From positions 264,291 through 328,290 of the forward strand of contig CAVSMY010000010.1 in NCBI GenBank assembly GCA_963729175.1: a DNA stretch of 64,000 nt, read 5' to 3'. Below, piece after piece: positions 14,251 to 59,340 of the stretch. Origin of the DNA: an uncultured Chloroflexia bacterium (GTDB taxonomy: Bacteria > Chloroflexota > Limnocylindria > Limnocylindrales > CSP1-4). The stretch's first letter is position 1. Each line of letters opens with the position of its first letter. A program made the position numbers and the translations under genes. The notes under the pieces were generated by a model. The model searched no databases. It had not been told where the DNA came from and saw nothing but the letters and a program-made list of their open reading frames with translations.

Positions 14251-14835
14251 TCAGTCCGTCGAGCGAGGCTGGTTCGCCCGCTCGCCGCGCTGGGCGAGCG
14301 TCGCCGTCTCGGTGATCCGGGCAGACCGCGTCTCCGCCCGCTTCGCGACGGCGATCCAGGTGAGGATCTGCTTGCGGACGCTCGGCGAGAAGGTCGCCCA
14401 GTGGGTCGCCGCCGGCGGTGAGGCGTCGAGGGCCGCTTCGAGATCGGCCGGCACCTCCAGGCGTTCCGGCCCATCGAGGACCGTCCACGACCCGTCCGCC
14501 TTGGCTCGCTCGATGGCCGCGAGTCCGGCCGGTGCCATCCGCCCCTCGGCCGTGAGCCGCTCCACCCGGGCCTTGTTCGTCGCCGCCCACCCGCTGCCCC
14601 GACGCCGAGGCGCGAAGTACAGCTTGGAGCGCTCGTCGTCGACTCGACCGCCCTGGCTGTCGACCCAGCCGAAGCACAGCGCTTCCTCGACCATCACGTC
14701 GTAGTCCAGGCCGACCCGATCCGACGAGCTCCGCCACGTCACCAGCCACACGCCCGATCCCGAGGCATGGTTCGCCTCGAGCCACGAGCGCCACGTCTGA
14801 CGGTCGTGGGCCTCGACGATCGGCGCGTCCTCGAG
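14251..14835 (-). CDS. YdeI/OmpD-associated family protein (DUF1801-like)
   Basis: WRSWLEANHASGSGVWLVTWRSS...EEALCFGWVDS...YFAPRRRGSGWAATNK pattern of the OmdA/YdeI family. Start probably GTG near 14835. Confidence 0.6.
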   Translation of the reverse strand, partial: LEDAPIVEAHDRQTWRSWLEANHASGSGVWLVTWRSSSDRVGLDYDVMVEEALCFGWVDSQGGRVDDERSKLYFAPRRRGSGWAATNKARVERLTAEGRMAPAGLAAIERAKADGSWTVLDGPERLEVPADLEAALDASPPAATHWATFSPSVRKQILTWIAVAKRAETRSARITETATLAQRGERANQPRSTD

Positions 14836-15182
14836 TGCACCCACGCCCGAACGATACCGGTGCCGGTGCGACCCTCGCCGTCGGTCGCGCACGTGGTCTC
14901 GGTCCGGCCACTCACTGCCGATGGGCGCGTGGTGCGCAGAACGACGGAGGAACGGTCGAAGCGGGTCCGCAGGGCGGCAGGCGCGGCGTCGGTCCGCCGG
15001 ATCGCTCACTCGGGTCGCACATCGACGCAGGAGGGCCGGCCCGCTCGCCTCCACCGGTGCTGCTCCCTCGTTGCGCGCGTGTGGTGTGCATCGACCGCCC
15101 GGTCATGACCTCCAGCCCTTGTCGAACGTCCACCGCCGGGTCGATGCTCGATGTCAGTCGTACGCGACCACGGAGGTGACCG

Positions 15183-15389
15183 ATGACAGTCAAGCCGGGA
15201 GACACGATCACGATCGAGTCGGAGCGGGTCGGACAGCCCCCACGCCGGGGCGAGATCCTGGAGGTGATCGAGTCGCCCACCGGGACGGACTACCGTGTCC
15301 GCTGGGAGGACGGTCGCGAAACGGCGATCCGCCCAGCAGCCGGGAGCGCGACGATCCACGCCCGTCAGAGGGCAGAGACACCGCGCTGA
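15183..15389 (+). CDS. DUF1918 domain protein (68 aa)
   Basis: MTVKPGDTITIESERVGQPPRRGEILEVIES...YRVRWEDGRETAIRPAAGSATIH; GGAGGTG SD upstream. Confidence 0.65.
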   Translation: MTVKPGDTITIESERVGQPPRRGEILEVIESPTGTDYRVRWEDGRETAIRPAAGSATIHARQRAETPR

Positions 15390-15391
15390 TA

Positions 15392-15432
15392 CGACCACGC
15401 CGCCGTCCGGCACCCACGGAGAGCCAGGACGG
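15392..15432. terminator. Hairpin between convergent genes
   Basis: GCCGCCGTCC-N18-GGACGGCGGC (10-bp arms). Confidence 0.4.
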
Positions 15433-15474
15433 CGGCTGCCGCCAGGGAGACGACCCGGCGCGAGCGTGCCGGAG

Positions 15475-17154
15475 CTATGCCCCGGCAGCGACCTTCGCGC
15501 GGTCCTTGAGGATCTGGCCGGCCGCGAGCTTGCCCGGGGCGCCCATCACGCAGCCGCCCGGATGCGTCCCCGAGCCGCACTGGTAGTAGCCATGGATCGG
15601 GGTCCGGTACTGCGACCAGCCCGGCGCGGGTCGGAAGAAGAACATCTGGGGGGCGAGGAACTCGCCAGCGAAGATGTTGCCCTCCGACAGTCCGACGGTC
15701 CGCTCGATATCGAGCGGCGTCCGGATCTCGCGCTGCAGGACCAGGTCGCCGAAGCCCGGGAAGAACGACTCGAGGGTCGCCTGGACGGTGTCGCCCAGGT
15801 TCTCCTTCTCGGTGTCCCAGTCGCTCTCGCGGAGGTGGTAGGGCGCGTACTGGACGAAGCAGCTCATCACCGCCTTGCCGGGCGGGGCCATGTCCGGGTC
15901 GACCTGGCTCTGGATGGCGCAGTCGAGGTATGGCCGCTTCGAGTACCAGCCGTACTTCGCGTCGTCATAGGCCCGCTCGAGGTATTCCATCGATGGGCCG
16001 ATGTTCGTGAAGCCGCGGTACTGGTCGGTCCGGTCGCCCAGGGCCGGGTAGCGCGGGACGCCATCGAGCGCGAAGTTCACCTTGGCCGAGGTGCCCTGGA
16101 AGCGGAAGCGCTGGATCGTGTCGACGAGATCGGTCGGCAGCTCGCGTGGCTCGACCAGCTGGAGGAACGTCCGCCGCGGGTCGAGGGCCGAGACGACGAC
16201 CGGAGCGTAGAACTCGGTCCCATCGGTCAGGGCGACACCGGTCGCCTCGCCGTTCTTCGTGATGACGTGGTCGACCGGCGACTCCAGCTTGATCTCCACC
16301 CCGAACGACTCAGCCGCCCGGGCCAGGACCTGGGTGAAGCCGCCGTTGCCGCGCTTGTGGAAGGCCCAGGCCCCGAACTCGCCGTCGTGCTCGCCCAGGA
16401 TGTGATACAGGAGCACCAAGCCGGAGCCCTGCGAGTACGGCCCGACCTTGGTGCCGATGATCGCCGATGAGGCCATGTAGCCCTTGAGGATGTCCGACTC
16501 GAAGTAGTCGTCGAGGAAGTCGGCGGCCGAGCCGGTCAGCAGACGGACGGCATCGTGGACGACCTTCTTGTCGAGCTTGCGGAACCGCGAGCCGAGCGCG
16601 GCGAGCGCCACGAGCTCCTCCGGGTCGTCGCTGAAGATGTCCGGCGGGACCTGGTCCAGCAGCGGCTTGATCGCCTGGATGACCTTGTTGACGTCGTGAT
16701 TGAACGCGTCGTACGCGTCTGCGTCGTGCTTGCTGTGCCGGGCGATCTCGGCCTGGTTCTCCTGGTGGTCCTGCCCGAGCAGCATGTGATCGCCGTTCTC
16801 CATCGGGCAGAACGTCGTCGGCATGAGGATCGGCATGAAGCCGTGCTTGACGAGCTCGAGCTCCTGGATGATGTCGGGCCGCAGCAGGCTCAGGGCGTAC
16901 GAGAACGTCGTGAACCAGAACCCCGGGCGCAGCTCCTCGGTGATCGCCGCGCCGCCGACGAGATGGCGGCGCTCGAGGACCAGGACCCTGAGGCCCGACT
17001 TGGCGAGGTAGGCCCCGTTGGTCAGACCGTTGTGGCCGCCTCCGATGACGATCGCGTCGTACGTCCGGTCAGCGGCCGTCGACGCCCGGCTCGTCCGGGC
17101 GCGGGTCGGCTTCCTGGGCTCGGGCTTCTTCGGCGCGGGCTTGGTCTTCGGCAT
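15475..17154 (-). CDS. FAD/NAD(P)-binding oxidoreductase, phytoene-desaturase/amine-oxidase superfamily
   Basis: Rossmann motif YDAIVIGGGHNGLTNGAYLAKSGLRVLVLE and a C-terminal flavin-binding region. Unusual 35-aa Lys/Pro-rich N-terminal tail. Confidence 0.85.
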   Translation of the reverse strand: MPKTKPAPKKPEPRKPTRARTSRASTAADRTYDAIVIGGGHNGLTNGAYLAKSGLRVLVLERRHLVGGAAITEELRPGFWFTTFSYALSLLRPDIIQELELVKHGFMPILMPTTFCPMENGDHMLLGQDHQENQAEIARHSKHDADAYDAFNHDVNKVIQAIKPLLDQVPPDIFSDDPEELVALAALGSRFRKLDKKVVHDAVRLLTGSAADFLDDYFESDILKGYMASSAIIGTKVGPYSQGSGLVLLYHILGEHDGEFGAWAFHKRGNGGFTQVLARAAESFGVEIKLESPVDHVITKNGEATGVALTDGTEFYAPVVVSALDPRRTFLQLVEPRELPTDLVDTIQRFRFQGTSAKVNFALDGVPRYPALGDRTDQYRGFTNIGPSMEYLERAYDDAKYGWYSKRPYLDCAIQSQVDPDMAPPGKAVMSCFVQYAPYHLRESDWDTEKENLGDTVQATLESFFPGFGDLVLQREIRTPLDIERTVGLSEGNIFAGEFLAPQMFFFRPAPGWSQYRTPIHGYYQCGSGTHPGGCVMGAPGKLAAGQILKDRAKVAAGA

Positions 17155-17155
17155 G

Positions 17156-18355
17156 TCAGGCGGTCCTTCGCTCGGGGTTGAACAGGGGTGTCCGGGCGAC
17201 CTGCGCGTCGAAGTACTCGTAGCGGTGGTTCACCGCCAGCTCGAGCTTGACCCGTGACCCGATCGCCGTCCGGTCCAGCGGCACCCGCGCGAGGGCGATG
17301 TGGCGCTGCAGCATCGGCGAGTACATCTGGCTCGTCGCGTAGCCGAGCTGGTTGAGGTCGTCGTCGTAGATGTAGTACTCGTCCTGGATGGGGGTGTGGT
17401 CCTTGGGCGGGATGAGCCCCGCCGCGTCGTAGATCCGGTCGTAGTCCTGCCAGTCGACGACGAGCCCGCTGAGCCGCCAGCGCGACGACTTGTCGCGGAT
17501 CTCCCGGATGATCGCGTCGCGCCCGATGAACTCGCGGTCGTCGGTCTCGATGCCCCGGAGCATCCAGCCCAGGCCGAGCTCGACCGGCGACGACCGGTCG
17601 GCGTCCGTCCAGGCGAACCGGCTGGAGTGGAAGTCCACGTCGAGAAGGATGAGACCGGCCTCGATCCGGGTCATGTACAGCGCGGTCATCCCGAACGGGA
17701 TGACGCCGCGTCCGCGGCTGCCGTCCCAGACCGCGTCCCAGACCTTGAGCGCGTCTCCGGCGGGGATCCAGATCTCGTAGCCCAGGTCGCCGCTGTAGCC
17801 GGTCCGCGAGACATGGACCGGGACCTTCGCGACCTTGGTCGAGGTCAGGCCGAAGTACGGCAGCCCAGCGATCGCGTCCGAGAGCGGCGCGAGGATCTCG
17901 CGCGACCGGGGGCCCTGGACCGACAGGATCGCCCAGTCGTCGGTCACGTCATCGATGCCGACGTCGAGGCCGCCGCGGAGCTCGTCGAAGTAGGCGAGAT
18001 TCGGTTCGGCCGCGGTGAGGACGAAGTCCTGTCGCCCGTGCCGGAGGACGACCCCATCCTCGACGACGTAGCCGCGGTCGTCGCACCAGATCGTGTATTG
18101 GGCATGGCCGGGCGGGCAGGTCCGGATGTCGCGGGCCATGACGCCGGCCAGGTAGCGCTCGGCGTCGGGGCCGTGGAAGCGGTACTTGTACAGCGGCGAG
18201 GTGTCGAACAGGGCGGCCGCGTTGCGGACCGCGAAGTACTCGAACTTCTCGGACATCTGGTAGCGGGTGGCCACGAGATGGTTCGACCAGTGTTCCCACA
18301 GGCCGGTCTCGTTGAGCGCGCTGGTGCGCTCGTGGAACGGCGTCGTCCGGATCAT
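17156..18355 (-). CDS. Aminomethyltransferase (GcvT/folate-binding) family protein
   Basis: GcvT-family domain architecture. Its stop overlaps the start of the downstream oxidoreductase, giving an operon. Confidence 0.85.
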   Translation of the reverse strand: MIRTTPFHERTSALNETGLWEHWSNHLVATRYQMSEKFEYFAVRNAAALFDTSPLYKYRFHGPDAERYLAGVMARDIRTCPPGHAQYTIWCDDRGYVVEDGVVLRHGRQDFVLTAAEPNLAYFDELRGGLDVGIDDVTDDWAILSVQGPRSREILAPLSDAIAGLPYFGLTSTKVAKVPVHVSRTGYSGDLGYEIWIPAGDALKVWDAVWDGSRGRGVIPFGMTALYMTRIEAGLILLDVDFHSSRFAWTDADRSSPVELGLGWMLRGIETDDREFIGRDAIIREIRDKSSRWRLSGLVVDWQDYDRIYDAAGLIPPKDHTPIQDEYYIYDDDLNQLGYATSQMYSPMLQRHIALARVPLDRTAIGSRVKLELAVNHRYEYFDAQVARTPLFNPERRTA

Positions 18356-18394
18356 CGGCCCCTCGGTCGTGCGCAGCTTGGGACGTCGGACGCC

Positions 18395-18445
18395 TGGCGA
18401 CCGACGGTCCGCGCATCCTACGTTGTTATTGGACGGCTGCGCAAT
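18395..18445. promoter_or_regulatory. Candidate TetR operator in the divergent intergenic region
   Basis: TTATTG-gacggctgcg-CAATAg inverted repeat flanked by CCTACG direct repeats. It lies between the gcvT-like operon and the tetR start at 18457. Confidence 0.35.
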
Positions 18446-18456
18446 AGCGTCCTACG

Positions 18457-19302
18457 ATGCGGGCCATGGCTCGCCTGTCGCCCGCCGATCGCCGCGACAT
18501 GATCGTCGACGCCGCCCTCGCCGTGGCCCTCCGCAACGGCCTGGCCTCGACGACGGTCCGCGACGTGGCGGCCGAGATGGGCACGTCATCAGGGCTCATC
18601 CATCACTACTTCGACTCGATGGACGATGTCCTGGCCGCCGCCTTCGACCGGGCGGCCTCGGCGGATCTCGAGCGCTCCGCGGAACGGATCGCGGCGGCCC
18701 CCGATCCCTCGGCCGCGCTGGCCGGCTTCTTCGCGACCTATGCGCCGGTGGAAGCCGACTGGGCATTCCAGCTGTGGCTCGACGCCTGGGCCGAGGCGGC
18801 CCGCCGACCTGCCCTCCGGGCGACCTCGCGTCGTCTCAATCTGGCCTGGCAGCGCCTGCTCGCGACGACGATCCAGGCGGGTGTCGCGGACCGGTCCTTC
18901 CGGTGTGCCGATCCGGCGGGGGCCGCGTGGCGGATCCTGTCGCTGCTCGATGGGCTGGCTCTCCAGGTCGTCGCCCACCGGACGACTCTCCGCCGCGCGG
19001 ATGTCCTCGTCTGGGCCAGCGCGTTCGCCGAGGCAGAGCTGGATCTTCCGCCCGGGGCGCTCGCGGCGGCCTCTCGCCGGGCGCCGCGGCCGGATCAGGG
19101 CCGGCGGTCGGAACCGGGCGCGATGGCCCAGCGACCCGCGAGCACCGAGCTGAGTCGCCCAGCGACTGAACCGACGTCGGACCGGCGCTCGCGCCAGCCC
19201 GATCGACCATTCCTCCCTCGATCGAGTCGCCCAGCGGCTCAAGCGACGGCGGTGCGGAAGCTGCGCGACCCTTCTTCGTCCGTTGACTCGCCCAGAGAGT
19301 GA
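18457..19302 (+). CDS. TetR-family transcriptional regulator (C-terminal ~70 aa encoded by repeat DNA)
   Basis: N-terminal TetR HTH (TTVRDVAAEMGTSSGLIHHYFDS). The ORF runs into the 19.1-19.3 kb repeat block, which is low complexity and rich in P/R/S. Confidence 0.8.
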   Translation: MRAMARLSPADRRDMIVDAALAVALRNGLASTTVRDVAAEMGTSSGLIHHYFDSMDDVLAAAFDRAASADLERSAERIAAAPDPSAALAGFFATYAPVEADWAFQLWLDAWAEAARRPALRATSRRLNLAWQRLLATTIQAGVADRSFRCADPAGAAWRILSLLDGLALQVVAHRTTLRRADVLVWASAFAEAELDLPPGALAAASRRAPRPDQGRRSEPGAMAQRPASTELSRPATEPTSDRRSRQPDRPFLPRSSRPAAQATAVRKLRDPSSSVDSPRE

Positions 19303-19420
19303 CGCCGAACGTCGCGGCCGAGGCGTCGCGGAAGCGCCGAACGTCGCGGCCGAGGCGTCGCCGAAGCGCCGAACGTCACCGCCGCGTCGCGGCCGGATCA
19401 GGGCCGGCGTTCCCGGCTGA
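19150..19420. repeat. Repeat block: 25-mer GAGTCGCCCAGCGACTGAACCGACG, ~2.5 tandem copies of a ~32-bp unit (19293-19390), and a duplicated 21-mer GCGGCCGGATCAGGGCCGGCG
   Basis: Direct inspection. A related 25-mer and further 'gagtcgcccag' units recur at 21.2-21.45 kb. Confidence 0.6.
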
Positions 19421-21125
19421 CGGCGCGCGTCGGTCGATCCGTCGTCCCGAGCGATCGGCGGACGGGGATCAGCCAGATGAGGCCGACGATCGACTGCCCG
19501 AGGATGGCGAGGATGACGAGGAAGCCCGGGATCGAGACGACGAACAACGGCACGAGCCACTCGCGGCCGCCGTCGAGCATGCCGAGCGCCTGAAGACCGA
19601 CGCCCGTCGAGTCGCTGATCGGCTCGAGGGTGTCTCCGCCGGCCAGGCCGATCGCCGGCTGATCGCCGCCGCCCGTCCCGCCTGGGCCCGATCCACCGCT
19701 GCCGGATCCGCCGGGCGTCGACCCGACGATGCCGCCGCCGGATGGCGGGAGCGAGGCGCCGTCGGAGGATGAGGGCGATGGGGAAGGCTCGAGCGACGCC
19801 GAGGCCGAGGCGCCGGGGCTCGCTGAGACCCCGGGCGATGGCGAGGCACTCGGGAGGCCCGCGCCCGCGCTGGCCGACGGGGTCGGCGATGCCGTGGACG
19901 GCAAGCTCGGCGACGGCAGCAGCGAAGTCCCGGGCGAGGACCTCGCCGGCAGCGACGCCGCCGGGCTCGACGAAGGGCTGGGCGCTGGCGTGCGACTCGG
20001 CAGTGGGCTCGGCGACGGCGCCCGCGACGGGAGCGGCGACGCCGCGACGCTGGGCAGCGGCGAGACGCTGGGCCGCGGCGACACGCTCGGCAACGGCGAC
20101 CCGACATCGTGGCCGTTCGTGTCGTTGAGCAGGCGGAAGTTGTCGATGTCGAGCAGGGCGAGGCAGGCCGTCGGAGCCAGGTCCGCGGCCGGCGGTCCCG
20201 TCGGCGCATCGAGCCCCGGGGTGTCGCGACGGCGCTCCTCGGAGAGCGTCTCGAGCTCGGTCGCGAGCAGGCCGATGGCGGTCCCGTGGGTGTACAGGCC
20301 GGTCAGGGCATCGCGCCTCTCGGCCTCGATGAGCTGGGCGGTCTGGCGGAGGAGCCGGACGTGGGCGGCCCGGAAGATCCAGACGAGCAGCAGGGCAAGA
20401 AACCCCGCCGCGCCGACAGTGACGAGGAGGATGTCGCGACGGGTCTCCTCGAGGCGGGCGAGGATCGGCGCGGCCGGCCGCTCGACGATCACGACGCCGT
20501 CGACGCCACCACCCGGGGTCGTGAGCGGGAAATACTCGACCAGCGTCGTCGCACTCGGGCCGGCCGATCCGGTCGGTTCCGCGGGTGGCGTTCCGCCGTC
20601 CGACTCCGACGACCGGATCTCCGAGCCGACCTGGCCGGCGGCAGCGGTCGACCAGGGCGCGGATGCGCCGACCGACACGCCGTCGAGCGCGGCGTCTGTC
20701 GAGACGACGACCGTGCCGTCGGGCGCGACGACGGCGAGCGTCTGGACGTCATCGCGAGAGGCGATGTCGGCCAGTCGGGCGCGGAGCGCCCCGCGTCGTT
20801 CGGGCGTGACCGCCGACGGGTCGAGGTCGGTCGTGCGGAGCTCGGGCAGGACGATCAGTCGAACGAGGCTCCGATCGCGCCCGGCTGCGGCATCGAGCGC
20901 GGTGGCCGAGAAGTGGACCGTGATGAGGACCGCCTGCGCAGCCGTCGTCACGCCGAGCAGCGCGAGGAACACCCCGAACACGAGCGCAAGGAGGTGCGGC
21001 CGGCGACGTCGCTCGGTCGGCGACCCCGTCGGCGCCGGCCTCCGCGCCATCTGGCTCGGCAGCTGGATGAGCGTCAACGGCGAAGCCTCGGCGGATGGAC
21101 CCGATGTGGCCGCTACCGTCGCCAC
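19398..21125 (-). CDS. Membrane-anchored sensor protein with a truncated GGDEF domain joined to a Pro/Ser-rich repeat region and a C-terminal TM helix (probably non-catalytic or remodelled)
   Basis: TM1, ~200-aa extracytoplasmic region, TM2, then GGDEF N-terminal blocks (RDALTGLYTHGT...ACLALLDIDNFRLLNDTNGHDVG). The domain ends there. Next comes ~190 aa of SPLPSVSPRPS...-type imperfect tandem repeats, then a TM helix. No GG(D/E)EF motif in any frame. Confidence 0.6.
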   Translation of the reverse strand: MATVAATSGPSAEASPLTLIQLPSQMARRPAPTGSPTERRRRPHLLALVFGVFLALLGVTTAAQAVLITVHFSATALDAAAGRDRSLVRLIVLPELRTTDLDPSAVTPERRGALRARLADIASRDDVQTLAVVAPDGTVVVSTDAALDGVSVGASAPWSTAAAGQVGSEIRSSESDGGTPPAEPTGSAGPSATTLVEYFPLTTPGGGVDGVVIVERPAAPILARLEETRRDILLVTVGAAGFLALLLVWIFRAAHVRLLRQTAQLIEAERRDALTGLYTHGTAIGLLATELETLSEERRRDTPGLDAPTGPPAADLAPTACLALLDIDNFRLLNDTNGHDVGSPLPSVSPRPSVSPLPSVAASPLPSRAPSPSPLPSRTPAPSPSSSPAASLPARSSPGTSLLPSPSLPSTASPTPSASAGAGLPSASPSPGVSASPGASASASLEPSPSPSSSDGASLPPSGGGIVGSTPGGSGSGGSGPGGTGGGDQPAIGLAGGDTLEPISDSTGVGLQALGMLDGGREWLVPLFVVSIPGFLVILAILGQSIVGLIWLIPVRRSLGTTDRPTRAVSRERRP

Positions 21126-21189
21126 AGACCCGCCGCTGGTGCATCCCCCGAACGTACCGTTGCCGAGAGGTCGCGGTGACGCGCGTCAC

Positions 21190-21450
21190 CGCCCGGTCGT
21201 CACCACCCCGACTCACTGCGGCGAGTCGCCCCGACGTCACTGCAGCGAGTCGCCCAGACGTCATTGCCGCGAGTCGCCCAGCGAGTGAACCGACGCCCGA
21301 CCGATCCCCACGGATGCCCGCTCGACGGTTCCTTCGACGTTCGAGTCGTCCAGCGGCTCAGACGGCCGCCGGGCGGCTGTCTGCTGGGGCTCCGTCGTCT
21401 GTTGAGTCGCCTGGCGACTGACCGCACAAGACTGCGGTGCCGCGGCGACT
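21190..21450. repeat. Repeat block: three tandem copies of a 24-bp unit (CACTGCRGCGAGTCGCCCMGACGT, 21222-21293), the 25-mer GAGTCGCCCAGCGAGTGAACCGACG, and further gagtcg(c/t)ccag units
   Basis: Near-identical to the 25-mer at 19153. These repeats bracket the GGDEF-like gene. Confidence 0.6.
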
Positions 21451-21550
21451 GATCGCCGAACGACGTCGCCGCCGATGCCCACACCCCGCCGCGGCATCGC
21501 CGGGCGCACCGAACGACGCCGCGCGGCCGGGCCCGACAGCGGCCCGGGTG

Positions 21551-22114
21551 TCAGCCGAACCGGAACCGGGTGACGTCGGTCGGGAAGGCCGTCCAGGCGA
21601 ACGCGACGCGGGGCCGGATCGCGATCGGACCGGGACCGGTGTACAGCTCCGGCGTCACGCCGTACTGCGGGTACTTCTCGTTCGAGAGCGCCGCGAGCCG
21701 GACCGCCGTATCGAGCGACACGCCCTCATCGAGCGACTCGGCGACCCCCTCGAGGATCACGACATCCATCCCATCGTCGAGATGGACCGCGACCTCGGGG
21801 TTGTCGAGCAGATCACGGACCCAGCGGGTCTCCGGGCTGCCGCCGACATACAGGACGCCGTCATGCCACAGCCCGTCGACCGGCCGGACGCGCGGCCGCC
21901 CACCGGGTCCCGAGGTCGCGATCCAGTAGACACGGGCGGCCGCGAGCCGGCCCTCGACATGGCTCCAGGGCAGGAGGTCGGCGGTCGACGCCGGGACGCC
22001 GTATTCGGAAGGCACGACGGGCCGGTCGATGGACCGTGGACGGGCTGGCGGGTCGGACCCGCGGGGCAGGGTCGGGGCAGTCTCGATCATCAGCAAAGCA
22101 TCGCGCGGTTTCAT
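21551..22114 (-). CDS. Pyridoxamine 5'-phosphate oxidase family protein (FMN-binding split barrel)
   Basis: ...ARVYWIATSGPGGRPRVRPVDGLWHDGVLYVGGSPETRWVRDLLDNPEVAVHLDD..., a PNPOx-like fold signature. Confidence 0.7.
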   Translation of the reverse strand: MKPRDALLMIETAPTLPRGSDPPARPRSIDRPVVPSEYGVPASTADLLPWSHVEGRLAAARVYWIATSGPGGRPRVRPVDGLWHDGVLYVGGSPETRWVRDLLDNPEVAVHLDDGMDVVILEGVAESLDEGVSLDTAVRLAALSNEKYPQYGVTPELYTGPGPIAIRPRVAFAWTAFPTDVTRFRFG

Positions 22115-22132
22115 GACACCTCATGTCAGGAA
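22110..22132. promoter_or_regulatory. Imperfect palindrome TTCATGACA-cct-CATGTCAGGAA overlapping the RBS and start codon of the PNPOx-like gene
   Basis: TGACA/TGTCA arms. Related sites at 27940-27959, 29216-29229 and 30518-30530. Confidence 0.35.
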
Positions 22133-22219
22133 CCGCCGGCCATCAGCCGGCGGCGCGTCGCATCTGCGCCCGCCCACGGTGAGTCGCCAGGCCGCCCGCC
22201 CGCGGTGGGTCGCCGAGCG

Positions 22220-23470
22220 TCAGCCGCGCCCGAGCGCCGCCTCCCGTGCAGCAGCGAACCCGCGGATGCCCTGCTCGACCATCGCGTCCGACGCCGTGAG
22301 GCTGATCCGGAACCAGCCCGGGACCTCGACCACGCTGCCGGCGAGGACGAGCACATCGTGCTCGCTGAGGATCGCCGCGAACGCCTGGTCGTCGTCGATC
22401 GGCGCCTTGGCCATGACGTAGAAGGTGCCCTCGGGCATCGTCGGCGCATAGCCGAGTGTGGTCAGCGCGGGCACGAGCCGGTCGCGTCGCCGCTCGAGCG
22501 CCCCGATGTCGATCGACAGCGCCTCGAGCTCCTCGATCGAGTGCTGCAGGAGGGCGTTCGGGAAGGCATAGCCGGTCGCGACCTGGCTCAGGGTGATGAC
22601 CTGCCGCAGCTGCTCGCGCTCGGCCAGAGGGAGTGTCGGTGGCCAGGTGATGTAGCCGATCCGCTGCCCCGGGGTCAGGAGCGTCTTGCCGTACGAGTAG
22701 GTGATGATCGTGTGGGGATACGCCTCGGCCGGGCTGTGGAAGACGCGGCCGTCGTAGACGATCCGGTTGTACGGCTCGTCGGACACGATCCAGATCGGCG
22801 CCCCGTTGCGCTCCGATGCCCGCAGAAGCATCTCCCCGAGGGCCGTCCACGTCTCGAGCGGGTAGACCCGGCCGCTCGGGTTGTGGGGGCTATTGATGAT
22901 GATCGCCCGGGTCCGCGGCGTGATCGCCGCCTCGATCGCCGCGGGGTCGATCTCGAACGTCGGAGCCTCGAGCTTCACCCGGACCGGGACACCGTCCGCG
23001 GCGACGATCAGCAGCTCGTAGAAGAACCACGGTGGCGACAGGAAGATGACCTCGTCGCCCGGCTCGACCAGCGCCCGGATCGTGACCGCCAGGGCGCCGA
23101 AGCCGCCGTTCGTCATCTGGACGTCGGCCGGGTCCCACTCGAGCCCGGTCCGCGGCGTGAGCGACCGGGCCACGACCGCCTGCGAGTTCGGCTCGCTCAT
23201 CTTGTAGGCGTACCAGTCCTTGTCGCGTGGCTCGACGTGGTCCCGCAGGGCCGAGACGTACCCCGGCAGGGCGAGCTCCTGGGGATTGCCGACGGCGAAG
23301 TTCGCGACCGCAGGGTCGGTCATGCGGCGACCGATCGGTCCGCTGATGAAGGAGATCGGGAGCTCGATCGTCGACCACCAGCGCTGGAGGCGGGCCGGCG
23401 GGACGAAGGCGGGTCCGGTGGACGAGGCGGGGCCGGGCATGGTGGTCGTCATCGGGGCGTGGATCTCCAT
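22220..23470 (-). CDS. PLP-dependent aminotransferase, class I/II
   Basis: SPHNPSGRVY and YSYGKTLL (PLP lysine region) motifs. Start at ATG 23470 (MEIHAPM) or 23452. Confidence 0.85.
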   Translation of the reverse strand: MEIHAPMTTTMPGPASSTGPAFVPPARLQRWWSTIELPISFISGPIGRRMTDPAVANFAVGNPQELALPGYVSALRDHVEPRDKDWYAYKMSEPNSQAVVARSLTPRTGLEWDPADVQMTNGGFGALAVTIRALVEPGDEVIFLSPPWFFYELLIVAADGVPVRVKLEAPTFEIDPAAIEAAITPRTRAIIINSPHNPSGRVYPLETWTALGEMLLRASERNGAPIWIVSDEPYNRIVYDGRVFHSPAEAYPHTIITYSYGKTLLTPGQRIGYITWPPTLPLAEREQLRQVITLSQVATGYAFPNALLQHSIEELEALSIDIGALERRRDRLVPALTTLGYAPTMPEGTFYVMAKAPIDDDQAFAAILSEHDVLVLAGSVVEVPGWFRISLTASDAMVEQGIRGFAAAREAALGRG

Positions 23471-23487
23471 GGATCGGGGCGACGGAT

Positions 23488-24432
23488 GTGGTCGCGATCG
23501 AGTATGCGCCGCCATGGGCACGACGTCGGCTGGCCTATCCTTCGCTCGTGCCGATCTACTCACTCGAGGACCCAGGCGAGCTCATCGCGCCGACGATCGT
23601 CGTCGCGTTCGATGGCTGGGTCGACGCCGGCTCCGCGGCCACGGCGGCGGTCGAGCAGCTGGCGAGCGGCGGTGACGACGACGGCGCGGTCGTCGCGACC
23701 TTCGACCCCGACGAGCTGTTCGACTACCGGTCCCGCCGGCCGACCCTCGAGGTCGTCGATGGCAGGCTGGCCGAGCTGACCTGGCCCGAGCTGAGCCTCA
23801 AGCGCTCCCGGATCGCCGGGCGCGACGTCCTGGTGCTGACCGGCCACGAGCCCGACTACCGCTGGCGCGCCGTCAGCCAGGCGGTCATCGAGCTGATGCA
23901 GCGCCTCGACGTCGCGGAATGGATCAGCCTCGGGGCGATCCCGGCGGCGGTCCCCCACACCCGGCCGGTGCCGGTCCTCGGGACGGCCTCGCGGCCGGAT
24001 CTCATCAAGGCCGACGTCCCGACCGGGCCGCAGGGCACCTTGCGTGTCCCGTCGGCGGCGCTCTCGGTCCTCGAGATGGCGGTGACCGAGGCCGGCTTCC
24101 CGGCCGTCGGCTACTTCGCCCAGGTCCCCCACTACGTCTCGGGTCCCTATCCCGCGGCGTCGGTCGAGCTCCTCCGAGCGGTCGGTCGCCAGCTCGGCGT
24201 CGATGCCCCGCTCGGCGTCCTCCCCGACGAGGCCCGCCAGCTCCGGACCCGGCTCGACCTCGCCGCAGCGGCGGACGAGACGACCCGCTCCTACGTCGAG
24301 CGGCTCGAGGCGATGGTCGACGAGGAACGGCTGCCCGCAGGAGACGACCTGATCGGCGAGATCGAGCGCTTCCTCCGCGATCGTGGCGTCGAAGGTCCGC
24401 CGGGCGGGCCGGGGAGCGGTCTCCCGAACTGA
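23488..24432 (+). CDS. PAC2 (proteasome assembly chaperone 2-like) family protein
   Basis: LVPIYSLEDPGELIAPTIVVAFDGWVDAGSAA... is a typical PAC2-family N-terminus. The true start may lie a few codons in. Confidence 0.7.
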   Translation: MVAIEYAPPWARRRLAYPSLVPIYSLEDPGELIAPTIVVAFDGWVDAGSAATAAVEQLASGGDDDGAVVATFDPDELFDYRSRRPTLEVVDGRLAELTWPELSLKRSRIAGRDVLVLTGHEPDYRWRAVSQAVIELMQRLDVAEWISLGAIPAAVPHTRPVPVLGTASRPDLIKADVPTGPQGTLRVPSAALSVLEMAVTEAGFPAVGYFAQVPHYVSGPYPAASVELLRAVGRQLGVDAPLGVLPDEARQLRTRLDLAAAADETTRSYVERLEAMVDEERLPAGDDLIGEIERFLRDRGVEGPPGGPGSGLPN

Positions 24433-24673
24433 GGCTCCTCGGAGCATCCGACCGGTCTGCGCGGGCGCGAGACGCAGAGACGCGTCGATGCCAGGGGCTC
24501 GGTCAAGGGGGAGAGCGTTCGGACCGCCGTGTCGCAAATGTTGCCGGCTCCGCCGCCGCCCGGCATCCCGCCGGAGGGTCGACGCGCCGCCGGTCCTCGT
24601 ATCGCTGTCCGGCGGTCCGTTTCGCTGATGAGGAGACTACGCCCGCCCTCCGGCCTTTCCCATCTGCCAACCG

Positions 24674-25594
24674 TCAGGGGGAGGGTCGGCTGGATGACGT
24701 AGCCGGAAGGTGCCGAACGGCCCATGCATCGAGGACGGCATCGGAGAGGGCGGGCCAGGCGGTCAGCGCCCACGGGCCGAACTCGCGGTCGGTCAGGCAG
24801 GCCAGCGCGAGGCCGGCATCAGGGTCGACCCACAGGAACGTGCCGGCGCCGCCGAAGTGCCCGAACGTCCGAGGCGAGTTCGCCGACCCCGTCCAGTGGG
24901 GGACCTTGGCGTCGCGGATGTCGACTCCGAGGCCCCAGTCCATCGGGTCGTACCGCCCGAAACCCGGCAGGATGCCGCGCAGCCCGGGGAACGCGACGCT
25001 GGTCATGAGCCGGACCGACGATGGTGCGAGGACCCGGGGCCGCAGCAGCTCTGCGCCGAAGCGGGCGAGCTCGCTGACCGGTCCCCACAGCCCCGCCGAC
25101 GGCCGCTCCCGGAGCTCGGTCCGCTCGATCCCGAGAGGGCGGAGCAGACGCCCGGCGAGGACCGCCGCGAACGGCTCGCCGGCCCGCTCCGCGACCAGCT
25201 CCCCGAGCATGTCGAACCCGGCGTTCGAGTAGATCCGGGTCCGCTCCGGCAGGCTGATCGGCTGGCGACCCTCGAACGGCAGGCCCGACGCGTGGGCGAG
25301 CAGATGGCGGACGGTCGCGCCGGGCGGCCCGGCCGGCTCGTCGAGGTCGATCGTCCCGGCCTCGACCTCGAGCAGGACGACCGCGGCGGTGAACGGCTTC
25401 GTCACCGAGGCCCACCGGAAGATCCGGTCGACATCGCCTCGCGAGGCCACCGGACCGTCTGGAGCGACGACGATCGCGGCGGCGTGGTCGACCTCCCAGC
25501 CGTCGATCGCCTCGAGCGCGACCGCCACGCGCGCGGCGGGGACGAGCGCGGCGGATCCGCCCGCGGCGCGCGGATCCGGGTCGGCGGATGTCAT
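24674..25594 (-). CDS. Serine hydrolase, beta-lactamase (class C-related) family
   Basis: SVTKPFTA (S-x-x-K) and YSNAGF (Y-x-N) motifs. 306 aa. ATG at 25594. Confidence 0.8.
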   Translation of the reverse strand: MTSADPDPRAAGGSAALVPAARVAVALEAIDGWEVDHAAAIVVAPDGPVASRGDVDRIFRWASVTKPFTAAVVLLEVEAGTIDLDEPAGPPGATVRHLLAHASGLPFEGRQPISLPERTRIYSNAGFDMLGELVAERAGEPFAAVLAGRLLRPLGIERTELRERPSAGLWGPVSELARFGAELLRPRVLAPSSVRLMTSVAFPGLRGILPGFGRYDPMDWGLGVDIRDAKVPHWTGSANSPRTFGHFGGAGTFLWVDPDAGLALACLTDREFGPWALTAWPALSDAVLDAWAVRHLPATSSSRPSP

Positions 25595-25648
25595 CGGGCC
25601 AAGTCTGCGACCTCCCGGGGGCGGTCCGCTTCGCGGTACGCTCGCCGC

Positions 25649-26473
25649 ATGACCGATCCAGGCGGCCCGGCCCTCCGCACCGTCGCGGCGACCCGCTACG
25701 TGACGCCGCTCCGGGAGGGCGGCTCGCTGCCCGGGTTGATCGAGGCCGATGACGACGGGCTGTACGTCCTGAAGTTCCGTGGCGCGGGCCAGGGTGTCCG
25801 GGCGCTGACCGCCGAGGTGATCGCCGGCGAGGTCGGTCGGACCCTCGGTCTCGCCGTCCCGGAGCTCGTCCTCGTCGAGCTCGATCCCGCGCTCGGGAAG
25901 GCAGAGCCCGACAGCGAGATCCGCGAGCTCATCGTCCGGTCGCCCGGGCTGAACCTCGGGCTCGACTTCCTGCCCGGTGCCCTGCCGTTCGATCCGGCGA
26001 GCGGCCCGGTCACGGACCCCGACCTGGCCGCCTCGATCGTCTGGCTCGATGCACTGCTCACGAACCCCGACCGCTCGGCGCGGAACCCGAACCTGTTGCG
26101 CTGGCACGGCCGGCTGTTCTGCATCGACCACGGCGCGGCGCTCTACATCCATCACACCTGGCGCGACCCCGAGGCTCACGCGGTCGGTCGCTTCCCGCCG
26201 ATCCGGGATCACGTCCTGCTGCCCTTCGCGAGCTCGATCCCCGAGGCCGAGGCACGGCTCGCGCCGTTGCTCGACGCCCCGACCCTCGCGGCGATCGTCG
26301 CGCTCGTCCCCGACGACTGGCTGGTCGAGGGACCGGTCGCCGACGGGTCGTCGCCCGGCGCCACGCGGGCCGCCTATCTCCACTACCTGGTGACCCGCCT
26401 CGGGGGCCCGAGGGCCTGGGTCGAGGAGGCCGAGCAGGCCCGCCTGGAGGCGATCGAACGTGCCGTCGCCTGA
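25649..26473 (+). CDS. Kinase-like protein with HipA/PI3-4K-type catalytic-loop motifs (putative Ser/Thr kinase)
   Basis: 274 aa. NPDRSARNPNLL and CIDHGAAL resemble the D-x-H-x-x-N catalytic loop and DFG-like motifs of HipA and PI3/4-kinase-fold proteins. The 3' end overlaps the next gene by 14 nt. Confidence 0.55.
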   Translation: MTDPGGPALRTVAATRYVTPLREGGSLPGLIEADDDGLYVLKFRGAGQGVRALTAEVIAGEVGRTLGLAVPELVLVELDPALGKAEPDSEIRELIVRSPGLNLGLDFLPGALPFDPASGPVTDPDLAASIVWLDALLTNPDRSARNPNLLRWHGRLFCIDHGAALYIHHTWRDPEAHAVGRFPPIRDHVLLPFASSIPEAEARLAPLLDAPTLAAIVALVPDDWLVEGPVADGSSPGATRAAYLHYLVTRLGGPRAWVEEAEQARLEAIERAVA

Positions 26474-26879
26474 GCCGCGCGGCGCCACGCGGGCGCCGTT
26501 CGAGTACGCCGTCCTCCAGGTGGTGCCGGACCTCGAGCGCGATGAGCGCCTGAACGTCGGGCTCGTGCTGATGTGTCGGCCGCGCCGCTTCCTCGGGGCC
26601 CGCGTCGAGCTCGACGCGACGCGTCTCGCGGCGATCGCGCCGGGCTGCGATCCCGCGGCGATCGCGGCCCACCTCGACGTCGTCAGCCGGATCGCGGCCG
26701 GCGACCCGAGCGGTGGACCGATCGCCCGGCTCCCATACCCGGAGCGGTTCCACTGGCTCGTGGCGCCCTCGTCGACGATCGTCCAGCCCTCGGCCGTCCA
26801 CACCGGTCTGACGAGCCAGCCCGGCCGGGAGCTCGACCGCCTGTTCGGGCGCCTCGTCTCCGCCCCTCGGTCGAGCTGA
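26460..26879 (+). CDS. DUF3037 domain protein, translationally coupled to the upstream kinase-like gene
   Basis: FEYAVLQVVPDLERDERLNVGLVLMC matches DUF3037 (PF11236) from memory. GTG start inside the kinase stop region. Confidence 0.6.
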   Translation: MPSPEPRGATRAPFEYAVLQVVPDLERDERLNVGLVLMCRPRRFLGARVELDATRLAAIAPGCDPAAIAAHLDVVSRIAAGDPSGGPIARLPYPERFHWLVAPSSTIVQPSAVHTGLTSQPGRELDRLFGRLVSAPRSS

Positions 26880-26889
26880 GCCGGATCGG

Positions 26890-26913
26890 CGCTGCGATGT
26901 CGCTGCAGCGCCC
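26890..26913 (+). terminator. Hairpin (attenuator or terminator) between DUF3037 and the zinc peptidase
   Basis: GCGCTGC-gatgtcgct-GCAGCGC. Confidence 0.3.
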
Positions 26914-26994
26914 GGCCCCGGTCGTGGCGGCGCCCCGTGACATCGTCGGTGGCAAGATGACGGCGCGCGCCCGAGCGTGGGAGGAAGCCGCTCG

Positions 26995-27873
26995 ATGACA
27001 CTCGACCCGAATGCCCATCTCGATCCGAGTCAGATCCGCGACGTCCGCGGCCGCCGGATCGGCGGCGGGACGATGGCGCTGGGAGCCGGCGGGGGCGGCA
27101 TCACGCTCCTCATCATCCTCGTCTACACGCTGCTCGGTGGGAACCCCGGCGACCTGACGGACCTGACCGGGACGACGATCGGCGACCAGCCGGTCGCCAG
27201 CGGCGCGGCCTCCGAGTGCACCAGCGGTGCCCAGGGCAGCACCCGCGACGACTGCCGGATCGTCGGCTACGTGAACAGCGTCCAGGCGTATTGGGATCAC
27301 GAGTTCCAGAGCGCCGGCGAGACGTATGAACCGGCCCAGACGACCTTCTTCACCCAGGCGATCCAGACCGGCTGCGGCACCGCCAGCGCCGACAGCGGGC
27401 CGTTCTATTGCCCCGCCGACGGCTATGTCTACCTCGACCTCGGGTTCTTCGACGAGCTCCGAACCCAGTTCGGCGCGCAAGGCGGCCCGCTCGCACAGGC
27501 CTACGTGATCGCCCACGAATACGGCCATCACGTCCAGGACCTCCTCGGCATCCTGCGGCAGACCTCCGGGGGCTCGGGCGCGGGCAGCGATTCGGTCCGG
27601 ACGGAGCTCCAGGCCGACTGCTTCGCCGGGGTCTGGGTCGACCATGCCCAGGGCACCGGGTATCTCGAGCCGGTCACCCAGGCCCAGATCTCGGATGCCC
27701 TCGATGCGGCCTCCGCGGTCGGTGACGACCGGATCCAGCAGAGCGTCCAGGGCGTCGTCAACCCCGAGACATGGACCCACGGGTCGTCGGAACAGCGGCA
27801 GCGCTGGTTCCTCACCGGCTACAAGGCCGGGGACCCGAACGCCTGCGACACGTTCAACGCGACCAACCTCTGA
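26995..27873 (+). CDS. Neutral zinc metallopeptidase (YpfJ/PF04228 family)
   Basis: N-terminal TM segment. HEYGHH zinc-binding motif and a conserved QADCFAG block. GGGAGGA SD upstream. Confidence 0.85.
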
Positions 27874-40631: not shown

Positions 40632-41030
40632 CTATCCGGTCGACACGAAGTGAAGGTCGTCGCGGCCTTCGAGTGAGAACGTGTCACCTGCGCCGGAGGC
40701 GACGTCGATGACGAAGAGCGGGTGGCGCCAGCGCTCGTCCATCTCGCGGTCGATGTAGAAGGATGCAGGCCCGATGACGCCGATCAGGGCGTCACCGGGC
40801 CCGAGGAGCAGCTCGCCGCGGCGCATGCATACGGGCGCGCTGCCGTCACAGCAGCCTCCCGACTGGAGGAAGACCAGCGGCCCGTGCTCGGCGGCGAGAC
40901 GCTCGATCAGCTCGAGCGCCGCGGGTGTCGCTTCGACGCGGGTCTCGGTCCGAGACCTCGCCCCAGGACCAGTCCGGGGCCTCGTCTCGGGCCGTGTCCG
41001 GGGCCCTGCCCCGGACCGGTCACCCTCCAT
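40632..41030 (-). CDS. DUF779 domain protein
   Basis: ATPAALELIERLAAEHGPLVFLQSGGCCDGS, the typical aldehyde-dehydrogenase partner. Confidence 0.8.
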   Translation of the reverse strand: MEGDRSGAGPRTRPETRPRTGPGARSRTETRVEATPAALELIERLAAEHGPLVFLQSGGCCDGSAPVCMRRGELLLGPGDALIGVIGPASFYIDREMDERWRHPLFVIDVASGAGDTFSLEGRDDLHFVSTG

Positions 41031-58515: not shown

Positions 58516-59340
58516 GTGACGCAGAAGCGGGCCGGGTCGGGCGAGCGGCGGGCCGGGTCGAGCGAGCAGCGGGCCGGGTCGGGCGAGCGGCGACCCGAGA
58601 CGGCGAGCGACGTCGACCTTCCGTGGTGGCCGGCCGATCGAGGCCGCGTCGAACGGACCCCCCTGACTCGGGACCAGATCGTCCAGGCCGCCATCAGGCT
58701 GCTCGACACCGAGGACCTCGAAGCTCTCTCGATGCGGCGCCTCGGCCAGGAGCTCGGGTCCGGCGCGACGTCGCTCTACTGGCACGTCAAGAGCAAGGAC
58801 GAGCTCCTCGACCTCGTGATGGATGAGATCCTCGGCGAGGTCGGGGGCGAACTCGCCATCGACGATCACGCTCCCTGGCAGGAGCAGGTCGCGGAGGCCG
58901 CCCGCGCATTCCGCCGCACGATCCTCCGTCATCGAGGCGCGGCGATCCTGCTGGGGACGCGGGTCACGATCGGGCCGAAGACGCTGGCGGTGAGCGAGCG
59001 GGCCGTCGGGATCTTCCGGATGGCGGGATTCGACGGCCAGGGGCTCGTCCTCGCCTTCCAGACGGTCATCAACTTCGCCACCGGTTCGGCGGTGTTCGAG
59101 ACGCGTGGTCCGTCGGGTCCGATGGTCGAGGACCTCTCGAACGACGAGCTGGCGGACCTGATGGGCGAGCTGCTCGCCGGCCTCCCGCCCGCCCAGTTCC
59201 CGAACCTTGTCGCCCTGGCCGGGGGTGTCCCGGGCATCACCGACGAGATGCAGTTCGAGTACGGCCTGGCCCGGATCATCGACGGTCTCGAGGCCGAGTT
59301 GCGGCGCGAACGACGGAAGCGGCGCGATGGCGGCCGCTGA
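58516..59340 (+). CDS. TetR-family transcriptional regulator (divergent from the DHA2 MFS gene)
   Basis: HTH LSMRRLGQELGSGATSLYWHVKSKDELL. The 5' region carries 3 copies of a 21-bp tandem repeat (58521-58585, encoding RAGSGER), so the true start may be downstream. Confidence 0.8.
   Translation: MTQKRAGSGERRAGSSEQRAGSGERRPETASDVDLPWWPADRGRVERTPLTRDQIVQAAIRLLDTEDLEALSMRRLGQELGSGATSLYWHVKSKDELLDLVMDEILGEVGGELAIDDHAPWQEQVAEAARAFRRTILRHRGAAILLGTRVTIGPKTLAVSERAVGIFRMAGFDGQGLVLAFQTVINFATGSAVFETRGPSGPMVEDLSNDELADLMGELLAGLPPAQFPNLVALAGGVPGITDEMQFEYGLARIIDGLEAELRRERRKRRDGGR

Follow-up and report, generated by a model that had tools for sequence, protein, structure and literature searches.

A probable deletion fusion of a sensor GGDEF-HD-GYP gene with its downstream neighbour, beside hairpin-headed repeats, in a Chloroflexota genome

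In tandem GGDEF-like/HD-GYP proteins the GGDEF-like domain tends to be regulatory and the activity that of a c-di-GMP phosphodiesterase. Several classes of small intergenic repeat are also known in bacteria: mycobacterial interspersed repetitive units (MIRU) of 46-101 bp, the enterobacterial hairpins of the REP and BIME type, and MITEs, Correia and ERIC elements, which are imperfect palindromes of ~100-150 bp. Here we describe a locus that bears on both. It lies in a 64,000-nt stretch of DNA, below called the window, from an uncultured Chloroflexia bacterium (GenBank assembly GCA_963729175.1, contig CAVSMY010000010.1, positions 264,291 to 328,290). A minus-strand open reading frame (ORF) at 19398-21125 begins as a membrane sensor with part of a GGDEF domain and ends as an anchored protein of another kind; diverged copies of a repeat stand on both sides of it. 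We consider the locus to be probably a decayed two-gene operon in which an in-frame deletion fused the sensor half of one gene, here called G, to the tail of the next gene, S, the flanking repeats being a separate feature. Gene fusion by deletion beside lineage-specific intergenic repeats is a well-known event; the particular fusion and the particular repeat are new instances.

The closest described relatives of the first half are found in a Chloroflexota subfamily of GGDEF-HD-GYP proteins (P0002, P0003 and P0009). The fused ORF resembles these in its N-terminal 317 residues, which are orthologous through the first GGDEF blocks. However, it has lost roughly two thirds of GGDEF and all of HD-GYP, and its C-terminus comes from another gene.

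The two halves of the reading frame

The features of the ORF and its upstream region are as follows.

19398-21125, minus strand: the fused G::S ORF, 575 aa from GTG at 21125, with the likely start at ATG 21050 (550 aa)
20100-21050, minus strand: the part derived from G, with a first transmembrane helix (TM1), an extracytoplasmic region, a second helix (TM2), a coiled linker and the first ~55 positions of the GGDEF profile (DALTGL...LLDIDNFRLLNDTNGHDVG); BLASTP, profile and Pfam
19398-20099, minus strand: the part derived from S, a Pro/Ser/Gly-rich linker and a conserved C-terminal anchor (EWLVPLFVVSIPGFLV...RRSLG); BLASTP, phmmer and hydropathy
20047-20100, minus strand: an 18-bp x3 tandem repeat, in translation SPLPSV/SPRPSV/SPLPSV, lying right at the junction 20099/20100 of the fusion; Tandem Repeats Finder
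21141-21190, minus strand: the conserved upstream region of G, with the box CGGTACGTTCGGGGGATGC at 21141-21159 and the hairpin GGTGACGCGCGTCACC at 21175-21190, kept between the right repeat copy and the gene

Alignment with orthologues favours the start at ATG 21050. From residue 17 onward the ORF is identical to P0001, a public protein of 559 aa encoded on a 581,864-nt contig, which starts 16 codons later. By hydropathy, TM1 spans about residues 45-68 and TM2 about 232-254, and towards the C-terminus a long hydrophobic segment occupies 523-555. A preliminary description of this DNA, made from the sequence alone, had seen a 575-aa minus-strand gene with two transmembrane helices, a partial GGDEF domain and a further, C-terminal helix, and all of these are found. 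Around the locus the base composition is ~72-75% GC. Third-position GC is 0.80-0.97 in every 90-nt window of the ORF, with the final 18 nt as the sole exception; as it is high on both sides of the junction, the frame is native on both sides.

The sensor half is closely matched by the protein P0002 (644 aa): residues 26-342 of the fusion correspond to its residues 1-320, with 68% identity over 329 aligned columns (BLASTP, E 3e-131), and the match stops exactly at ...NDTNGHDVG. In window coordinates, residues 1-320/321 of P0002 map to 21050-20097/20100 (tblastn and BLASTP). In general the homologues of G are proteins of ~590-650 aa from Chloroflexota/Limnocylindrales metagenomes, built in the order transmembrane helix, sensor, transmembrane helix, GGDEF, HD-GYP (PF00990 with PF13487/PF01966). 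The orthology of the G half is seen both in the identity of the sensor half and in the neighbourhood, since PAC2, aminotransferase, PNPOx and G stand in the same order in a related contig, L125.

What remains of the GGDEF domain is short. If membership is taken to mean a full domain of ~160 residues above the curated cut-off, the ORF falls outside the family: Pfam GGDEF (PF00990) matches only residues 321-342, corresponding to profile positions 34-55 of 161, with 16.2 bits against a cut-off of 23.8, and TIGR00254 gives 24 bits against a threshold of 37.4. We further built a family profile of 609 positions from 48 homologues of G and searched it against the six frames of the whole window, with no speed filters and at E <= 10. 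Only positions 5-285 match, at 20100-21017; positions 286-609 have no match in any frame. In agreement with the profile, tblastn of the window with four intact homologues finds nothing past the GHDVG block in any frame. The GG(D/E)EF active-site motif is absent. The HD-GYP domain (PF13487/PF01966) and its HHExxDGxGY motif are missing from all frames of the window. An intact GGDEF domain recoverable by frame correction is thereby ruled out, and the six-frame check for a remaining active site (A-site), which the preliminary description had proposed, is negative. Its view of a chimeric gene without a catalytic GGDEF core is supported, with P0002 matching the N-terminal part and, as shown below, P0050 the C-terminal part.

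The nature of the ancestor has to be revised. Among 70 intact homologues of G, 61 have GPDEF in place of GG(D/E)EF, and 66 have the HHExxDGxGY motif. Because the intact family combines a degenerate GPDEF with the HD-GYP motif, the ancestor of the G half was more likely a phosphodiesterase than a cyclase. It was a GGDEF(GPDEF)-HD-GYP protein and not a plain diguanylate cyclase.

The second half of the ORF belongs to a different protein. Residues 490-575 align with residues 337-418 of P0050 with 67% identity over 86 columns (BLASTP, E 2e-30), covering EWLVPLFVVSIPGFLV...VRRSLG, and phmmer lengthens the match to query residues 346-568 against P0050 200-415. Other matches of the S type cover only query residues >=343. 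In P0050 (421 aa, labelled 'TonB' by JGI) an N-terminal hydrophobic segment and a domain of ~130 residues are followed by a Pro/Ser/Thr-rich linker, with units of the PLPSIA/PRPSVR type, and by the same C-terminal anchor. It belongs to no Pfam or NCBIfam family, so none of the sorting-signal models of NCBIfam fits the anchor. P0050-like proteins have in common with the fusion a Pro/Ser-rich linker and a hydrophobic anchor with an RRSLG tail. In contrast to them, the fusion lacks the N-terminal signal/anchor sequence and the extracytoplasmic domain (P0050 residues 1 to ~170-190); for residues 1 to ~170 no credible tblastn match exists anywhere in the window (best E 2.3).

The Pro/Ser-rich stretch had previously been taken, together with a 'new' transmembrane helix, as the product of repeat DNA. 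This is not so: both are the native 3' part of a downstream P0050-like gene. The composition of residues 344-489 is 29% Ser, 23% Pro, 14% Gly and 12% Ala, and the lesson is that a low-complexity tail that looks generated by repeats can be the native linker of the next gene.

The two source genes are neighbours in relatives. On two JGI contigs the genes of P0002 and P0050 abut, with stop and start sharing one coordinate. Further, a P0050-like gene lies downstream of a G homologue in at least 13 more distant metagenome loci, mostly within 35 nt (L003, L019, L012, L008, L020, L011, L009, L021, L014, L007, L005, L016 and L006). A gene for a sensor GGDEF(GPDEF)-HD-GYP protein followed by one for a Pro/Ser/Thr-rich anchored protein is therefore a conserved two-gene unit in Limnocylindria-type Chloroflexota. 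Given this adjacency and the matches at both ends, the ORF is G(1 to ~320)::S(~170-190 to end).

The C-terminal anchor is also found elsewhere. A module of the form (E/I)WxVPxFxxxxPGxLxxxAxxG(Q/A)xxxGxxWLxPxxRRxLG is present in P0050 at ~365-418, in P0421 at ~310-360 and in the window at 19398-19570 (minus strand), where it follows Pro/Thr/Ser-rich linkers in proteins with differing N-terminal domains. It has the look of a C-terminal anchor or sorting signal that has not been described before. This module, for which Pfam and NCBIfam hold no model, and the conserved pairing of a GGDEF(GPDEF)-HD-GYP gene with a gene for an anchored surface protein are by-products of interest in their own right.

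The probable deletion and its likely product

Comparison with relatives shows an ancestral state in which G, a membrane sensor with a GPDEF domain and HD-GYP, was immediately followed by S. The product of S had a signal/anchor sequence and an extracytoplasmic domain, then a linker rich in Pro/Ser/Thr and, at the C-terminus, a membrane anchor. A single in-frame deletion would then have removed G from codon ~322 to its end together with the first 170-190 codons of S. Its size is estimated at ~1.5 kb, from 323 codons of G and ~170-190 codons of S. The deletion would have joined ...NDTNGHDVG to SPLPSV..., at the edge of the hexapeptide repeat of the linker. The repeat-driven remodelling envisaged earlier thus gives way to one probable deletion between neighbours, with a junction far from the repeats.

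The predicted product keeps the sensor, both transmembrane helices and a GGDEF stub of 55 positions, without an A-site and without HD-GYP, and so it should be able neither to make nor to degrade cyclic di-GMP (c-di-GMP). The native anchor of S is probably reached from outside the cell, with the basic tail (RRSLG...RERRP) facing the cytoplasm. The linker of the fusion comes after TM2, on the side of the cytoplasm, and the anchor would have to insert in reverse orientation. Judged from sequence, the fused protein is most likely a remnant with little or no function, though there is a smaller chance that some role was kept.

No similar fusion is seen among the proteins searched. P0001 forms a singleton cluster, and an exhaustive phmmer search of 1.84 billion representative proteins gives 488 matches, none of which joins the sensor half of G to the anchor of S. 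Matches to the G part end before query residue 445, and those to the S part (P0050, P0351, P0382, P0420, P0421, P0444 and P0457) start at or after residue 343. Seven matches of the G type pass the junction by 20-100 residues; the four that were inspected are two frameshifted fragments of G and two homologues of G that bear GPDEF. Among them P0322 and P0316 were considered as relatives crossing the junction and rejected, being out-of-frame fragments of G. As no match is joined, phmmer gives no evidence of related strains conserving the Pro/Ser segment as a linker, which the preliminary description had named as a possible objection.

A protein seen just once, on a single contig from what looks like an assembly of an uncultured organism, might be an assembly artefact: the 1.5-kb deletion, or the repeat structure, could be a mis-join or collapse, with intact G and S in the real genome. 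We regard this as unlikely. The join is exactly in frame and the ORF is open, with coding-type third-position GC on both sides; no evident repeat is common to both breakpoints that could mislead an assembler; and L125 shows a disruption of G that may be independent, which makes decay of the gene in this clade plausible.

The same open frame could also be read as a functional new protein, kept by selection as a doubly anchored sensor or scaffold without c-di-GMP turnover. Over 550-575 codons the frame is unbroken and third-position GC is high, the conserved box upstream has been kept, and neither half shows unusual divergence (68% identity to P0002 and 67% to P0050). However, at 73% GC chance often yields long open frames, no other protein among the representatives searched has this architecture, the GGDEF domain is cut inside its fold, and an anchor with a basic tail would, by the positive-inside rule, have to insert reversed. 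Such a function has only a small chance of being real.

Annotations should avoid the labels diguanylate cyclase and 'sensor GGDEF' protein for this ORF, which is better described as the remnant of a two-gene fusion.

The upstream box of G is shared more widely. The box CGGTACGTTCGGGGGATGC is common to the window, L115 and L125, and the hairpin GGTGACGCGCGTCACC to the window and L125. In the three genomes the box lies ~95-130 nt upstream of the start codon of G (window 21141-21159 on the minus strand, L115 402-420, L125 ~10625), and it may be a promoter or operator element.

Repeats on either side of the gene

The repeats and the genes next to them are as follows.

19152-19356, plus strand: left repeat copy (R_L), three degenerate units of 72, 61 and ~65 nt, with hairpin heads at 19151, 19223 and 19284
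21271-21478, plus strand: right repeat copy (R_R), with three hairpin heads (21270, 21342 and 21403) and a core (21267-21424) that can be folded as one long hairpin
19303-19384, plus strand: 32-bp x2.6 tandem repeat (CGCCGAACGTCGCGGCCGAGGCGTCGCCGAAG), 94% matches, within and just past the 3' end of R_L and directly downstream of the stop of the fused gene
21206-21279, plus strand: 24-bp x3.1 tandem repeat, in which the first hairpin head of R_R is locally amplified
19081-19109, plus strand: 29-nt direct repeat, copy 1, inside the tail of the TetR ORF, 93% identical to copy 2
19384-19412, plus strand: 29-nt direct repeat, copy 2, holding the stop codon of the fused gene; the minus strand reads ...ERRP and stop
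22168-22232, plus strand: third, partial cluster of the motif head (GAGTCGCC / GGGTCGCC), 26-bp x2.3, between the aminotransferase stop and the PNPOx start
18457-19302, plus strand: TetR/BetI-type regulator ORF, 281 aa, with TetR_N and TetR_C_6 at residues 16-195 (Pfam)
21551-22114, minus strand: PNPOx-family gene, directly upstream of the right repeat copy; the order PNPOx then G is common to L125

R_L and R_R are in direct orientation, ~205 nt long and roughly three-quarters identical (76% over the first 106 nt). Their local alignment score is 98, compared to 24 +/- 3 for shuffled sequences, so that the bracketing of the gene by related repeats, noted before, holds over a larger similarity than had been seen. 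The units are headed by the GAGTCGCCCAGCGACT hairpin, and a common head of ~30 nt (GAGTCGCCCAGCGACTGAACCGACG) holds its 6-bp stem. Hairpin motifs lie at equal offsets of 0, 72 and 133 nt in both copies, and unit 1 of the left copy corresponds to unit 1 of the right copy, and so on along the copies. The 29-nt repeat copies are spaced 303 nt apart and bracket R_L and the 32-bp array.

The smaller elements of the preliminary description are present, although their limits shift. Both tandem arrays exist, but their coordinates had been slightly off (19293-19390 and 21222-21293). The shared 25-mer stands at 19152-19176 and 21271-21295, where starts at 19153 and 21267 had been given, and the duplicated '21-mer' is real but is part of the 29-nt direct repeat.

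The repeat sites are the spacers directly after the stops of three consecutive minus-strand genes: aminotransferase, PNPOx and G::S. Over the 64-kb window the 8-mer GAGTCGCC shows no overall enrichment (10 seen, 13 expected), and 7 of the 10 fall in 19152-22188, all on the plus strand. A further occurrence, at 15270, lies inside a small ORF and is not a repeat copy. This ORF of ~68 aa (MTVKPGDTITIESERVGQPPRRGEILEVIESPTG...), at 15184-15390 on the plus strand, is found between an OmdA-like gene and an amine-oxidase gene.

On the left side the repeat extends the neighbouring gene. More than 100 TetR orthologues are 200-215 aa long, while the ORF here, with both TetR domains, has 281 aa. The tail of ~60-75 extra codons passes the 29-nt repeat (residues 209-218) and then all three heads of R_L, and its stop (TGA, 19300-19302) is inside the third head. 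Third-position GC falls along the tail, from 0.83-0.93 to 0.58-0.77 after ~19087. The earlier view that the tail consists of repeat DNA is correct, and the TetR ORF should be annotated as artificially long. A 351-aa TetR protein, P0073 (L116), was examined as a second extended case and rejected: it carries an internal duplication of ~160 residues, its contig has 1.5 kb, and the duplication probably arose when two strain variants were assembled together.

The repeats are not obviously the cause of the fusion, and nothing in the sequence shows so. We do not credit them with it because the left copy lies ~700 bp and the right copy ~1,170 bp away from the junction 20099/20100, the copies are too diverged for good recombination, and there is no recombinase among the scanned ORFs. 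The scan covered ORFs, not every one, at 14251-27873, and with Pfam it found no transposase, recombinase, integrase or cas gene among them; the lack of a transposase had been stated before. The Pro/Ser repeats of the coding region are unrelated in sequence to the intergenic repeats on the flanks. We regard fusion and repeats as separate signs that constraint on the locus is relaxed and that it is locally unstable. R_R was inserted or expanded between PNPOx and the promoter region of G; a second copy, now diverged, lies after the stop codon of S, and there it took the place of the TetR stop and lengthened the TetR ORF. Replication slippage or local duplication would be the obvious candidates for the spread.

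Among described elements the repeats come closest to MIRU, REP and BIME. They have short hairpin-headed units in small tandem arrays, which stand in spacers after the stops of co-directional genes in one fixed orientation, and their copy number differs between relatives. They differ in being confined to this one locus in 64 kb and in having no sequence similarity to any described family. The ~158-nt core of the right copy, a long imperfect hairpin with inverted-repeat ends, also recalls MITEs, Correia and ERIC elements. On the other hand, a clear target-site duplication is missing, dispersed copies were not found, folding of the left copy is poor, and the units are tandem rather than a single palindrome; a bracketing direct repeat of 29 nt exists around the left copy only. 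An insertion sequence or composite transposon was rejected, as the flanking repeats are direct and not inverted and the scanned ORFs give no transposase or recombinase match.

A structured non-coding RNA or a degenerate CRISPR-like array was also considered. Hairpin heads recur at a spacing of 61-72 nt, the core of R_R (21267-21424) folds as one long hairpin with -79.8 kcal/mol (z = -2.5), and an RNAalifold model of the two copies has 10 pairs changed on both sides. This model, however, carries little weight, being derived from the same two sequences on which it is tested, and in the other three of the four strand and copy combinations (the left copy and both minus strands) folding is no better than for shuffled sequence. 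Rfam gives no match at gathering thresholds across the window and, at E <= 10, only three chance-level matches at the locus. No tRNA was found, and a terminator and promoter scan does not call the hairpins as intrinsic terminators. A CRISPR array was rejected: heads are only ~80% alike, the 'spacers' are duplicated between the copies, there is no match to an Rfam CRISPR direct repeat, and no cas gene was found among the scanned ORFs. Both ideas are very improbable.

Relatives of the repeat were sought with a two-copy model (nhmmer), which finds no further copy in the window, in 80 metagenome loci, in 34 loci from a genome scan or in L115-L125. The genome scan itself, with a two-hairpin pattern, gave 34 scattered matches in reference genomes, the source genome not being among them; the three with several matches are tandem repeats. 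Of these the two that were read, L106 and L110, were rejected as relatives; the former is a coding SESPSP repeat and the latter a 69-nt repeat, both unrelated. The 25-mer is absent from the viral contigs scanned.

A few observations weigh against a decayed operon with MIRU- or REP-like repeats beside it. The junction is supported by one assembly only. Third-position GC is high over the whole fused ORF, and therefore the fusion is either recent or still under coding constraint; that it is a dead remnant is something we infer. Further, there are just two full repeat copies in 64 kb, unlike a typical genome-wide REP family, and the 125 related or scanned loci hold no sequence relative of the repeat.

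The locus in related genomes

L125 is an ENA contig of 56 kb. It runs collinear with positions 30285 to 20356 of the window, where nucleotide identity is 72-81%. Both have in common the series Zn-peptidase, DUF3037, HipA_2/beta-lactamase, PAC2, aminotransferase, PNPOx and the N-terminal part of G, and therefore the position of G downstream of PNPOx is ancestral to both. The spacer between PNPOx and G is shorter in L125: from the PNPOx stop to the conserved hairpin (GGTGACG..GTCACC) and the box CGGTACGTTCGGGGGATGC there are ~95 nt, compared to ~375 nt in the window. At the place of the right copy L125 has only a single GAGTCGCCTGCGAC, and the copy itself is absent. The short spacer means that the right copy is a lineage-specific insertion or expansion. 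The third, partial cluster (22168-22232 in the window) is not in the corresponding spacer of L125 either.

This comparison also bears on a possible role of the ~205-nt direct repeats as recombination sites, which would make the 2.1-kb G::S segment a mobile or phase-variable cassette. The gene is bracketed by direct repeats, the left copy is itself bracketed by the 29-nt repeat, and the 3' side of TetR is a synteny breakpoint among relatives. However, G stands downstream of PNPOx in L125 without the repeat, so that the position of the gene is older than the right copy. Copies that are three-quarters identical are also a poor substrate for homologous recombination, and neither a recombinase, integrase or transposase among the scanned ORFs nor a tRNA is present. 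We think it improbable that the segment is such a cassette, and keep to a deletion fusion with separate repeats.

In L125 the match to G ends after TM2, and unrelated DNA follows (L125 11417-13600). It contains an acidic 322-aa ORF without a family and an ORF resembling DUF559/AbiEi_4. Either foreign DNA has independently disrupted G here, or the contig is a chimera. Within the collinear part, at 24674-27001 of the window, HipA_2 (plus strand) and beta-lactamase (minus strand) are long overlapping ORFs on opposite strands; given the GC content, gene calls there need care.

On the other side of the fused gene, L117 is 85% identical to window 16771-18986 (amine oxidase, GcvT, TetR). Downstream of its 207-aa TetR a 464-bp spacer is followed by an ABC-2 permease. 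At 2537-2760 L117 has a three-fold repeat with a period of 72-73 nt (TCGCTCACCCCGTGATCCAACGGGCC), in a geometry as in the window but with unrelated sequence. In a third relative the neighbour of TetR is a fatty-acid desaturase. Because the neighbour thus differs (desaturase, ABC-2 permease, and G::S here), the 3' side of TetR is a recurrent breakpoint with repeat-rich spacers. To this extent, that gene order around the locus differs among relatives, the earlier description of a hypervariable locus receives weak support, but no stronger sense of the term does.

The array in L117 might be a second instance of the same phenomenon. The hairpin units would then be an undescribed MIRU-like system of Limnocylindria-type Chloroflexota, which remodels gene ends (the TetR stop overwritten, a 2.1-kb segment bracketed) and promotes local rearrangement; or the fused protein would be a selected, c-di-GMP-blind and doubly anchored sensor. 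We put forward this pair of more far-reaching readings with little confidence.

Short tandem arrays are also present elsewhere in the window, with 21 bp x3.1 at 58527-58592 and 24 bp x3.1 at 40948-41021, and small tandem repeats may be a general trait of the source genome.

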